Assembly: GCA_951406725.2 (NCBI GenBank)
Contig: OX597826.1
Coordinates: 21,576,001 to 21,640,000, forward strand
DNA from: Octopus vulgaris
Lineage: Eukaryota
Length of the DNA: 64,000 nucleotides
Reading direction: 5' to 3'
Shown: positions 3,762 through 19,634 of the stretch, in pieces
Position numbering within the stretch: the first letter of the stretch is position 1
Layout: the number at the start of each line of letters is the position of its first letter
Notes under the pieces: generated by a model
Databases searched by the model: none
Told to the model about the DNA's origin: nothing
Seen by the model: the letters and a program-made list of their open reading frames with translations, nothing else
Made by a program: the position numbers and the translations under genes

Positions 3762-3957
3762 TCTTTTTGAGATTTTGCAGAGTTTATATTGGGCAGTTTA
3801 TGGCCTTGTCGATCTAGAACACGCACATTTGGACGAACCGCACAAACTGACCGAACTGATTGGCAAGCTGATGTTTGGCAGTTACAGTATGATAGCCATT
3901 ATTATTCTGCTTAACTTACTTATCGCTATGATGAGCAATTCCTACCAACTCATTTAT
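3762..3957 (+). CDS. TRPC/TRP-like channel, pore-S6 exon variant A (mutually exclusive)
   Basis: ttttctttccag|T...TAT|gtaaga, 196 nt, phase 2 to 0. Encodes LFEILQSLYWAVYGLVDLEHAHLDEPHKLTELIGKLMFGSYSMIAIIILLNLLIAMMSNSYQLIY, matching the TRPC pore helix (LFW-like LYW) and S6 (LLNxLIAMM.NSYQ). Confidence 0.92.
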
Positions 3958-5281
3958 GTAAGACTCATTCCTTTGTCTACAACATTTTCATTCTTTACAC
4001 ATCATTTTTTTCATCACATTTTCATTTTCATGTTTATGATTACAATTTTACAGTTTTAATGAAATTTTACAGTTTTAATGAAATTTTCAGACGTGTGTGA
4101 ACTTTTATAACTGCTGTTGCTTTAACAATTTCTTTTAAACAGGCAAAATATCAAGTATATTTTTTTTCTTTCAGTATAGATATTTCAGAAAATAAAAAAA
4201 ATGGAAAATTTTTTACCAGGCTGAACTGTTTCAACTCCATCATTTCCAGAACTGTCCAAAATGCCAGCACTCACTAAATCCAGTCATTTGTTGCAATTTC
4301 TTTCAAGATTTACCAAGGCAGTTTAACCATTTTTCAATTTTATACAGATTTCCAAACCTGACCATTTGGCAAATTCCTAAAAAAAACCTGCTTCTATACA
4401 ACCTCTGCACCATTTCAGACCAAAATAATTTGGCACCAAGAAACTTAATTTCTTGATTTTGTCTCTTTGACTTTAATTACAATTAGAATATAAAAATAGC
4501 TAATTAGTTACTGAGATAATTTTATGAAATATTTAAATTTTAATTTTTTAAAGAATTAATTATAAAATAGTTAGAGAAAATAATTGAGTTTATTCAGTAA
4601 GACAGATCTATCAAGTTAAAAAAAGAAAACATATACTTTCAGTAAAGCAAGGAATGAGTGAAAGTCTTTGATTCACACTTGATAAAAAATGTTATAAATA
4701 CTATTATATTCACCAGTTTGAAAGTGACATAAAGCAGAAGTATAGAAGTCTAGTTATGATTAAATATATTTAATACATAAGATAATTATGGCTGTCTAGA
4801 TTTAATGTATGAAGATAATAAATTAATATTGGATATATCAATATAGCTGTGATGGTAGATTATTTTGCAAGCAATAAAACTTTTATTATAAATAAAGTCA
4901 TCACAGATTTTTCTGAAGACATCCTATAGTACCATATGGCACCCTGATGTTGCTAAGTGCTACACTCTGGTTGGTAATTAGCATCACCTAATTAATTATT
5001 TATTTTCTGGTGATATTTGATTCTAAATAGGTATCACAACAAAATCTTATAAGCTTCATAGAAAATAAGGAATTTAATTATTTACTGGAAGTTTTCCCAA
5101 ACAATATCCATGATATTCTATGGCAACCTAAATATAAAATAATTTTGTTTATATTGACCAAACCTTTTTCAATTTTCAGACTGCTAAGAGCAAATATTTA
5201 ACACTGAAATCACAGAAAAAAATCAGATTGAATATTCTTAGAAATACTGAAGATTTCTGTAACTTTTTCTTTTCTTTCCAG

Positions 5282-5477
5282 TCTTTTTGAAATCTTGCAG
5301 AGTTTATATTGGGCTTTTTACGGCCTTATAGAATTGGACAACGCTCACTTGGACGAACCACACAAACTGACTGAGCTGGTTGGCAAACTGATGTTTGGAA
5401 GCTACAGTATGATAGCAATTATAGTATTGCTCAATCTGCTAATTGCTATGATGTCACTATCATATCAAATGATATCT
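5282..5477 (+). CDS. TRPC/TRP-like channel, pore-S6 exon variant B (mutually exclusive)
   Basis: ttttctttccag|T...TCT|gtaaga, 196 nt, phase 2 to 0. Encodes LFEILQSLYWAFYGLIELDNAHLDEPHKLTELVGKLMFGSYSMIAIIVLLNLLIAMMSLSYQMIS. Confidence 0.92.
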
Positions 5478-5535
5478 GTAAGAAAGTCTTTTACTTTCTC
5501 CTTATTGATCATAACTTATTCTGCTTCTTTTGCAG

Positions 5536-5731
5536 TCTTTTTGAGATCTTGCAGAGTTTATATTGGGCAATTTATGGTCTTATTGATCTGGAAGACGCCC
5601 ATCTGAAAGAACCTCACCATTTCACTGAGCTTATTGGGAAATTGATGTTTGGCAGTTACAGTTTGATAGCCATAATTGTACTTCTGAACATGCTAATTGC
5701 TATGATGAGCAACTCATACCAAATAATATCT
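5536..5731 (+). CDS. TRPC/TRP-like channel, pore-S6 exon variant C (mutually exclusive)
   Basis: cttcttttgcag|T...TCT|gtaaga, 196 nt, phase 2 to 0. Encodes LFEILQSLYWAIYGLIDLEDAHLKEPHHFTELIGKLMFGSYSLIAIIVLLNMLIAMMSNSYQIIS. Confidence 0.92.
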
Positions 5732-7721
5732 GTAAGAAATACAATTTAAGTCTGCTCTACCTAAGTTACAGCTTACTGACAGCATGAAGCTCTGACAAGA
5801 CAAACTCGCCACACAGTCCAACAGTATTTTCACATGGTACACATATAAACCATGTTAACATTTGTAGTTTCTGCAGTATAGAAACTGTATTAATATTAAT
5901 ACAAGTAAAAGTGCATGTTAGATCTATATTCTATAGTCATACTCCATAGTTGTTTAGTTGTTAGGCCTTTAATAGAAATCCCTGTCAAATTAGTGGATAG
6001 CTGTCACAGTTCAAGACATTTCTAGTAAAGTTATTTGTTTCTTCATCAAAATAGTTTTAGTTTCTTTACCACTTCACAGCAAGCTCCTGATAATTCTTTA
6101 AAAATACATTTTTCTTTAAAATTTTATTAAATTTAGGACATCTAAAAGAATGAAGAATTTTCTGCCTTAGAAACTTTTACATAAAGACGTTTTTAAACAT
6201 CTGTTAATCTAAGAACACCAGAGTTAATATTTCTTATTTAAAATATTGTTTTTTTTTTCTAGAGAAGCTAAAAGAATTGAGAAACCTAGTATGGTAAAAA
6301 ATTAAAAATTTTTCACCTTAACATAAATAAGTTTTGAAACCTCTTTGGAGAATTTAAAGTTAATATTTCCAATGAAAAATACTGGGTTTTTGACTATGAA
6401 TGAGCAAAGAGATTTGAGATAAAGTTTTTTCAAACGATATGTAAGCACCAAATTACATTAAATTTTGATTACACATATGTTCTAGGTTTGTTAGCAAAGT
6501 TTGGAGTTTTGCATAAATAAAAACTAAAGAAATATTTTACAACATTAAGAATTAAGTTGGAAATCTACTTCAGGAAGAATGGCTAGGACAAATGGCTATA
6601 ATATACCTAACTATATGCCTGATCTAATTTATATACAGGTTTTAAAAGTCTGAGGGACATTTAAATGTAAATATAATTGAAGCACAAGCCCTACCTCCTC
6701 TTAATGTCTTAAGCAGCACCTCCCTTGTTACACAAACCTTTTGCTCAACCCTAATCCCTACACAACCCCTTACTTTATTGCTTTCCTTAGAAATGCATTC
6801 TCCATTGCATCATCCCCCATCTGGATCTCAAAGAACTTTAGATCCACACACTCTTTTCTCACAATTTCTTTTTGAATGTGAGTCTGAGAACAACAATGAT
6901 TGGATAAGTTCATAGAATGGCTTTGATTCATCCATTTTCTGCTCATTAACACTTTATTCAATTATGTTGAAGTTTTGGGGTTCTGTTGAGAGAATAACAC
7001 ACTGGAATCTTCAAATCCACTTACAAATATGTAAAGTATTCTCAAAATATAATTTAATAATTTTTTCATTTAAAATTAATTACATGCATACATATGTATA
7101 TTTATACACATGCATAATTACATGTGCATACGTGCATATATACAGACAGACAGACGGATTTTCTGAAAAGAGTCAACAGATTTTATTACAATTTAACATC
7201 AGATAAAATTATAATTATCTTCATGAGAATACATTTATATAGAATTACCTGAAAAAATGTTTAAATATCCAGAAACAAGAGAAATGCAGAGAAGAGTCTG
7301 CAACTATTTAAGGTTTAAATATTTAGAAGAAAAACAACCATAAACAGACATTAAACCAGTTCATTGTTAAATATTTAATAGAATATGCTATGTATTTAAA
7401 TATAATAAAGAATTATTTTAATAATTGAATATATAACTAGTTTGAAAACAACTTCAAGTAAATCAAAAAAATAGTTTTAAAATTTTGCAAGTCTTACATC
7501 TTAGAAAGTTTGTAAATTTCTAGTTGATGTAAAAATTGATGCAGCTTTCAAACCCTCCTTATATTTGTGTTTGCACCAATAAGTTTGTCTGGCCAGAGCA
7601 ATGTAGAGGTAAGCTGTAAAAGGTTGGTTTGTTGCGAATGCTTTTCTTGTTCAGCTTTCGATTCATTTTCCATCTAACATACTTTATCTCTCCAACGAAT
7701 ACTCAATAAAGATGTACATCA

Positions 7722-7741
7722 AATATATATATATATATATG

Positions 7742-7795
<54 letters not shown>

Positions 7796-7953
7796 TATAT
7801 ACACACATACACACATATATATATGTGGTGTGTGTGTGTATGTGTGTACGTACACATACATATATTCATATATACATTGTATACATAATTATATGTTTGT
7901 ATTATATGTATTTGTATATACATAATATATATATATATATATATACATGTATG

Positions 7954-8001
<48 letters not shown>

Positions 8002-8037
8002 TATATATATATGTATATATATATATATGTATATATA

Positions 8038-8116
<79 letters not shown>
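7722..8116. repeat. (TA)n/(TATG)n microsatellite tract
   Basis: Directly visible. Confidence 0.9.
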
Positions 8117-8117
<1 letters not shown>

Positions 8118-8165
8118 CAAAGTTGAGTTGTGGGGTATCGCACGAGTGGAATTATATACGAAAGT

Positions 8166-8915
8166 AGGTTTGAAAATGCAATTTAAAAGATGTTTATTTA
8201 CTTTACCGGTTTCACTCTTTGGAAAAAGATTGTCAAAAGTAACATGTGGAAGTTTGGTTGCGTTAATTATTGGTTGTTGCAAATTGCTACATTACATATA
8301 TATATACAGTCTTTGGTAACAGGGACATGTTAAGGACATAAAAAAGTACAACAGTATGTTGAGAATATAAAGAGGTTTAACAAGCTCATTGAACAAATGG
8401 GCAGAAAAGATTAAAACAAATATATTATACATCTCAGGGTAATTTCCAGGAGGAATTATTAAAAAAAGTTCAGTACAGAATATTATGAATTCAAAAAGAT
8501 TTACATTAATGTAGTGGTGAGGTAGTTACTGACCTGTCTGTTGGACAGGTCAGTAACTACCTCACCACTACATTAATGTAAATCTTTTTGAATTCATAAT
8601 ATTCTGTACTGAACTTTTTTTAATAATTCCTCCTGGAAATTACCCTGAGATGTATAATATATTTGTTTTAATCTTTTCTGCCCATTTGTTCAATGAGCTT
8701 GTTAAACCTCTTTATATTCTCAACATACTGTTGTACTTTTTATGTCCTTAACATGTCCCTGTTACCAAAGACTGTATATATATATGTAATGTAGCAATTT
8801 GCAACAACCAATAATTAACGCAACCAAACTTCCACATGTTACTTTTGACAATCTTTTTCCAAAGAGTGAAACCGGTAAAGTAAATAAACATCTTTTAAAT
8901 TGCATTTTCAAACCT
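8166..8915. repeat. Near-perfect long inverted repeat (about 370-bp arms, 5-nt loop)
   Basis: Centre GACCTGTC-tgttg-GACAGGTC at 8531-8551. Arms read as reverse complements out to AGGTTTGAAAATGCA / TGCATTTTCAAACCT. A related single copy begins near 25900. Confidence 0.9.
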
Positions 8916-8919
8916 TCTT

Positions 8920-8966
<47 letters not shown>

Positions 8967-17484: not shown

Positions 17485-17679
17485 AGCCAAGCTGATGAAG
17501 AATGGAAATTTGCCCGTTCCAGACTCTGGATAAGTTACTTTGCAGAGGGAGCCACAGTTCCTCCACCATTTAACATTTTTCCAAGTCCAAAGTCTTTTAC
17601 GAATACAGTTGCATCCGTCAAGAATTTGCTTTTGGCTCACACAGCAGAACAGAAGACAGCCAAATGGAAGAATGTTCGG
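17485..17679 (+). CDS. TRPC/TRP-like channel, TRP-box exon
   Basis: ttcag|AGC...CGG|gtgagt, 195 nt, phase 0 to 0. Encodes [37 protein letters not shown]..., with the invariant EWKFAR TRP box and PPPFN box 2. Confidence 0.95.
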
Positions 17680-18646: not shown

Positions 18647-18688
18647 TCTACTGTTTCCAACATTAACAAGAGAGAAATCCGTTACCAG
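18647..18688 (+). CDS. TRPC/TRP-like channel, 42-nt exon
   Basis: tttttcag|TCT...CAG|gtgaag. Encodes STVSNINKREIRYQ and joins in frame to give YQ-VVIRKLISRYI, the TRPC rib helix. Confidence 0.8.
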
Positions 18689-19355: not shown

Positions 19356-19634
19356 GTGGTTATCCGTAAACTTATTAGTCGATACATCATGAACAAACAA
19401 CGCCCACAGAAAGACGAAATAGTCTCCCAAGATGATGTTAATGAACTTAAACAAGATATTTCAACATTCCGTTTTGAGCTGATGCAAGTGTTAAATAGTA
19501 ATGGTTTCGAAACACCTGTAATACATCAAGCGAAAACCTCGAGTAAGAAAGATCGAATGTGGAAGAACCTTTCAGTGGCAACTGATACTAATCCCGAACA
19601 GCTTTTGGAAGAAGCTGGCTTGATTGATGAATAG
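19356..19634 (+). CDS. TRPC/TRP-like channel, coiled-coil exon and terminal exon of the short isoform
   Basis: ttttcttgcacag|GTG...; encodes VVIRKLISRYI...DDVNELKQDISTFRFEL (TRPC C-terminal coiled coil), stop TAG ending 19634. Internal donor TCGA|gtaaga after 19542. Confidence 0.9.
   Translation: MVIRKLISRYIMNKQRPQKDEIVSQDDVNELKQDISTFRFELMQVLNSNGFETPVIHQAKTSSKKDRMWKNLSVATDTNPEQLLEEAGLIDE

Follow-up and report, generated by a model that had tools for sequence, protein, structure and literature searches.

One of the closest described precedents for the arrangement considered here lies in NALCN, where exons 15a/15b and 31a/31b are tandem, mutually exclusive duplicates of pore exons within one gene, as set out in the available text of PMC3557258. 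According to the same source, pore-exon duplication in NALCN occurs in molluscs, arose more than once, and was lost in some lineages, and in one of the four domains the exchange puts Lys in place of Glu at the filter. Among TRP channels, the pore region of TRPM3 (alpha1/alpha2) and TRPM1 is also spliced, by a 12-residue insertion in the pore loop that changes divalent permeability in TRPM3 (available text of PMC4435931). The Drosophila channels TRP, TRPL, and TRPgamma align without gaps over the octopus exons described below, with TRP residue D621 at exon position 17, but are the products of separate genes. A two-copy TRPgamma-like pore cluster of Mytilus is known from isoform records. The octopus locus resembles NALCN in carrying duplicated tandem pore exons, very likely mutually exclusive, in one gene. 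Unlike NALCN, it has three copies and encodes subunits of a tetramer, and its filter site shows no exchange of charge, reading Asp, Glu, and Asp at position 17. It differs from TRPM3 and TRPM1 in that equal-length duplicated exons that include S6 are swapped.

The window, a 64,000-nucleotide stretch of Octopus vulgaris DNA, contains the 3′ part of a gene annotated as TRPgamma-like in relatives (Table 1). The O. vulgaris protein model P0126 (802 aa) was placed exon by exon on the window and on six exons lying up to 15.1 kb upstream. The preceding exon ends 2.1 kb before the window, and three pore exons, A, B, and C, sit between that exon and the one carrying the TRP box. A preliminary description of the region had the variant exons span 3792 to 5731; its end coordinate is right, but exon A begins at 3762. 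Neither a fourth nor a degenerate copy was found in the window or in 150 kb upstream, and a genome search with the pore exon returned seven matches, namely A, B, C, and four other TRP genes at 35–47% identity. The intron after exon C contains a perfect palindrome at 8341–8741 (within 8159–8922) whose 198-nt arms flank a 5-nt loop and continue outward as 186-nt arms at 99%, the product either of a fold-back in the assembly or of a very recent inverted duplication. TG/TA microsatellites lie at 1780–1890, 7720–8115, and 8920–8965 and account for long spurious open frames in the window.

Table 1. Features of the alpha-TRPC gene in the window.
Feature	Position	Strand	Details
Pore exon A	3762..3957	+	196 nt, phase 2/0; encodes octopus residues 567-631 (pore helix, Asp-containing filter, turret, S6)
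Pore exon B	5282..5477	+	196 nt; Phe12, Glu17 (D621 site), Leu59; same as O. sinensis RefSeq model X3 (P0123)
B-C intron	5478..5535	+	58 nt; candidate branch points about 30-37 nt past the B donor
Pore exon C	5536..5731	+	196 nt; Asp17, Asp20, Lys24, His28, Leu43, Met52
Next constitutive exon, with TRP box	17485..17679	+	
Short constitutive exon	18647..18688	+	
Last coding exon, through stop codon	19356..19634	+	donor-like GTAAGA inside at 19543

The gene encodes a protein of TRPC architecture, with ankyrin repeats, a TRP_2 domain, and a six-helix Ion_trans domain (Pfam; P0126, P0123, and P0127). The best matches of the exons are TRPC4/5 (E 2e-18) and TRPgamma, aligned without gaps, and the TRP box lies in the next constitutive exon. 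The earlier reading of A, B, and C as alternative pore exons of a TRPC channel holds. The trp-like protein of the squid Loligo forbesii (CAA11261/O46129; P0127), which we take to be the photoreceptor clone of Monk et al. (1996), has the same Pfam architecture and matches O. sinensis model X1 at 608 of 738 residues outside exon A and at 65 of 65 within it; exon A falls in a run of 109 identical residues. By these comparisons, the octopus gene is an alpha-TRPC (the group of TRPC1/4/5, TRP, TRPL, and TRPgamma) and the ortholog of the squid photoreceptor TRP. In the available text of the relevant sources, all 13 of the cephalopod species examined have one copy of alpha-TRPC (PMC13402157, Table 1), alpha-TRPC is enriched in the eye (PMC13402157), and in situ hybridisation shows squid trp-like to be specific to photoreceptors (PMC9839350). 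The octopus protein is likely the photoreceptor transduction channel, and its orthology together with the squid expression would make it a PLC-activated cation conductance.

Exons A, B, and C share a length of 196 nt, AG/GT ends, and phases 2 and 0, and any two are identical at 152–158 of 196 nucleotides (78–81%) and at 53–55 of 65 residues. Their nucleotide differences fall mostly at third codon positions, with a between-copy dN of 0.09–0.13 and dS of 1.2–2.6, and purifying selection acts on all three. The reading frame is open only when a single exon is included; splicing in none, AB, AC, BC, or ABC leads to early stops. The cluster thus combines equal length and phase, canonical splice sites, and a frame kept by single inclusion, the marks of tandem mutually exclusive exons, and as judged from these features A, B, and C are very likely spliced in this manner. 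Exclusivity might arise from the destruction of mis-spliced products by nonsense-mediated decay, and steric hindrance in the short B–C intron possibly prevents splicing of B to C. We also scanned for docker/selector pairing of the Dscam type. The best common duplexes had energies of −15.7 (upstream) and −15.4 kcal/mol (downstream), compared with −16.4 to −17.3 and −14.1 to −14.9 kcal/mol, respectively, after shuffling (three coarser scans each); the best matches were G-runs in the DNA of a single species, and these energies contained no convincing signal of pairing.

Protein records carry exactly one pore exon each: A or C in spliced squid-like proteins, and A, B, or C in RefSeq models. In O. 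sinensis, A is found in model X1, B in X3, and C in X2, and these predicted models differ only within the exon. In O. bimaculoides, model X1 carries A and X2 carries C. Exon A is identical at all 65 residues to Loligo forbesii trp-like CAA11261 and to the X1 models of both species, while exon C is that of both X2 models and of the O. vulgaris model P0126. Among full-length squid-like proteins, P0007, P0128, P0129, and P0127 carry A and P0130 carries a C-type exon; the A and C proteins differ at 12 positions in the exon and at 4–5 elsewhere in residues 300–760. Since P0007, P0128, P0129, and P0130, which cluster with Loligo, are full length on short assembled contigs, they are probably spliced transcripts. 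Exon B is the least supported of the three, with one RefSeq model and the signature of selection. P0130, which uses exon C, also changes to a long alternative C-terminus at the point corresponding to window 19543 (GTAAGA), and no match to this squid-like terminus was found in the window or upstream, nor, with one query, in the genome. Long and short tails occur in mussels and clams as well.

Duplicated pore exons are already known for NALCN, and we found no report, and no published description of such a cluster, for a TRPC channel in literature that lay mostly outside subscription journals; the supplements of surveys could list one. The strings "splic" and "exon" occur 0 times in the main text, as available, of the 2026 cephalopod TRP survey (PMC13402157). 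The splice events described in the available parts of PMC6137742, PMC13483504, and PMC7143563 are others than those of the octopus pore cluster. In the material found, the alternative octopus pores are known only as RefSeq isoform models.

A tree of 34 exon rows (65 columns) places the eight cephalopod rows on one branch (96/97), in which A clusters with the Loligo and Argonauta rows, B attaches to that group at 85/87, and C and squid-like C fall in an unresolved fork. This topology points to duplication within cephalopods, before the octopus–squid split; gene conversion may also have shaped the history read from this short alignment (65 columns). As far as sequence comparison goes, A and C are older than that split, and nine A-versus-C differences are common to octopus and squid-like C. 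A decayed B-like stretch lies directly before C in four squid-like genomic ORFs (P0002, P0131, P0132, and P0010), at about the spacing seen in the window. It keeps Leu59, and the donor-site residue pattern is lost in three of the four ORFs. B therefore predates the octopus–squid split and appears to have been lost in those lineages.

The pore exon has been duplicated outside the cephalopods, too. The RefSeq isoforms X1/X2 of Mytilus galloprovincialis and M. edulis differ only in the pore exon, at 15 residues that include Asn59 to Ser and Gln62 to Ile (pore-exon records P0001, P0015, P0034, P0141/P0145, and P0142/P0146), and unnamed ORFs hold two tandem copies. Because the cephalopod exons form their own clade, the tree suggests a separate mussel duplication, and the two events are apparently distinct by sequence; since the tree does not pair the two mussel exons as sisters, the mussel duplication may be old. 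Arthropods mostly lack such a duplication: none of 80 metagenome loci, many of them short, contained a tandem pore exon, and none of the named insect isoforms retrieved had an alternative to it. Insect TRP or TRPL genes with alternative versions of the exon are not supported by these loci or by the closest pair, P0111/P0419, whose 106 differing sites indicate two different species. P0008 and P0035 are exceptions, each being an arthropod-like ORF in which two TRP pore exons lie in tandem.

The preliminary description gave the peptides of A, B, and C, the invariant pore helix (positions 1–11), and the MMSLSYQ of B exactly, and proposed that the differences concentrate at the filter, outer vestibule, and lower gate. 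Fifteen of the 65 positions vary. The pore helix accounts for one of them (out of 13 positions), the filter for two (out of 4), the turret for five (out of 12), upper S6 for three (out of 21), and lower S6 for four (out of 15). Eight of the 15 do fall in positions 12–29, but their concentration in these 18 residues is not significant after correction. The one-sided Fisher test gives P = 0.016 with limits chosen post hoc. Allowing any 18-residue window raises P to 0.21, and a null in which sites are weighted by their variability in 29 non-cephalopod mollusc exons gives P = 0.10. The octopus variable sites follow this mollusc background (Spearman 0.51), for which the exons were hand-picked, with close relatives included and turret insertions of one or two residues collapsed. 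The proposed concentration at the lower gate is absent in this octopus, as only one of the nine positions 54–62 varies (P = 0.67). The pore-lining positions 51, 54, 58, and 62, which correspond to N618, I621, N625, and Q629 of TRPC5, read N, I, S, and Q in A, B, and C alike, and the N-to-L change of B is at position 59, beside a constriction residue. The proposal fares better outside this octopus. Squid-like C differs at gate positions, with Gln62 to His in P0130 and P0010 and Ile54 to Val in P0130, and the second mussel exon has Ser59 and Ile62. The gate Asn of TRPC4/5 (N621/N625) is Ser in A, B, and C (3934, 5454, and 5708) and in fly TRP, and Asn in fly TRPgamma.

The equivalence of the variable D/E/D site with D621 was confirmed, since exon position 17 (codons 3811, 5331, and 5585) aligns without gaps to D. 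melanogaster TRP (P0327). It likewise aligns without gaps to TRPC4 N580, and TRPC4 residue 580 is directly above the filter glycine in the available text of PMC5951680. In fly TRP, D621 sets Ca2+ permeation (available text of PMC4164786 and PMC6061713, citing Liu et al., 2007). Our literature search for D621 mutants found no Asp-to-Glu data. Such a substitution reportedly has a far smaller effect than one to Gly or Asn. Fly TRPgamma, a channel of low selectivity, has Asp at the D621 site, so Asp alone is insufficient to define a TRP type. The site is Gly in named Anopheles TRPLs and presumably in D. melanogaster TRPL, and Glu is common there in arthropod TRP-family exons. The insect TRPL-like proteins P0094, P0111, P0419, P0405, and P0413 have Asp, Glu, or Gly at the site, depending on species; TRPL is thus not uniformly Gly.

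Other variable positions, passed over in the preliminary description, can be placed by sequence alignment on TRPC5 residues. Positions 12 (V/F/I) and 43 (M/M/L) correspond to TRPC5 V579 and V610 in the lining of the pocket from which a xanthine displaces phospholipid (available text of PMC7683545); the pocket comprises about a dozen residues, and two hits among 15 variable sites do not amount to an enrichment. A DAG analogue activates fly TRPL, according to the available text of PMC10093889. Position 28 (K/K/H) corresponds to TRPC5 E595, and neutralising E595 together with E598 changed PCa/PNa from 1.79 to 4.28. This alignment would lend some basis to the earlier idea that charge and His changes tune block or pH sensitivity. 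Charges are redistributed, without a net change: positions 14–32 hold five D/E and one K/R in each exon, with three, two, and three His in A, B, and C, respectively. Net-charge tuning was rejected on these equal counts of acids and bases. Among the exons retrieved, Lys24 and His28 of C were found in Octopus only. None of the 29 background mollusc exons has the Phe12 or the Leu59 of B, and one of the 29 has Glu17; Leu59 was seen once among 129 distinct S6 segments, namely in the exon B model itself. Positions 12, 16, and 19 tolerate change, since the Argonauta A-type exon departs from A at each of them. A structure prediction for isoform B made without an alignment had a pLDDT of 41 and was unusable.

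We favour, at a little better than an even chance, the reading that the octopus pore exons tune gating and block modestly. Such tuning is likelier than a switch of Ca2+ selectivity because the acidic filter residue and the gate residues are common to A, B, and C, and the two variable sites in the TRPC5 lipid pocket and the one at E595 point the same way. Subunits with A, B, or C are predicted to have a common gate and to keep an acid at the filter site, with modest differences in how lipids gate them and in how they are blocked from the outside. A would be the main eye form, C an old second form, and B a minor form retained in Octopus that has the most unusual residues; mixed tetramers could grade the effects. 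Against tuning, most of the differences appear conservative and lie at sites that vary across molluscs.

That objection leads to a second reading, possible but on balance unlikely, in which the three pores are nearly equivalent and are kept by purifying selection on channel function and by divided expression, their differences being mostly neutral drift at tolerant sites and B being on the way out. The match between variable sites and family-wide variability, the background-weighted test, the largely conservative changes, and the degenerate B of squid-like ORFs all fit near-equivalence. However, Octopus and Loligo have an identical A, and nine states specific to C survive the split, so A and C were neither homogenised nor lost. 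B combines its three states that are rare or absent in the 29 background exons with a low dN/dS and intact splice sites, and Mytilus has duplicated the same exon and changed the same S6 position 59.

Modest tuning is also to be set against a switch of Ca2+ selectivity as large as that between fly TRP and TRPL or between the EEEE and EKEE forms of NALCN, with splicing replacing paralogues, which we regard as improbable. The variation of position 17 at a determinant of Ca2+ permeation, the altered divalent permeability of spliced TRPM3, and the divergent gate of squid-like C speak for such a switch, and the preliminary suggestion that splicing stands in for paralogues does fit the single alpha-TRPC gene of cephalopods. 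Its further suggestion that the differences mimic those between TRP and TRPL fails, because an acid is kept at position 17 in all octopus exons, as opposed to the Gly of named Anopheles TRPLs, and the net charge is equal. The invariant gate of octopus A, B, and C, the Asp of fly TRPgamma, and the frequent Glu of arthropod TRP-family exons weigh against a selectivity switch as well. It is highly improbable that misassembly produced the copies, or that B and C are pseudo-exons without use: the long palindrome in the window is maybe an assembly fold-back, but copies only 78–81% identical, with differences heaped at third codon positions, recur in models of other Octopus species and in squid-like spliced proteins.

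Work on cephalopod phototransduction generally assumes a single TRP channel. We can sketch, as a speculative and rather doubtful extension, cephalopods running a whole rhabdomeric TRPC repertoire from one gene by pore swapping. A would serve retinal photoreceptors, and C (with the long tail in squid) and B would serve brain, skin, or other extra-ocular cells, each form with distinct lipid gating and Ca2+/proton block; splicing would then do the job of fly TRP, TRPL, and TRPgamma, and mussels would have arrived separately at something alike. The mussel parallel suggests that the pore exon is a recurring target of duplication. With three alternative pores, expression studies of alpha-TRPC pool different proteins. 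The exons also provide natural variants, identical outside 65 residues, with which the roles of the filter, vestibule, and lipid pocket in rhabdomeric TRPC channels may be tested.
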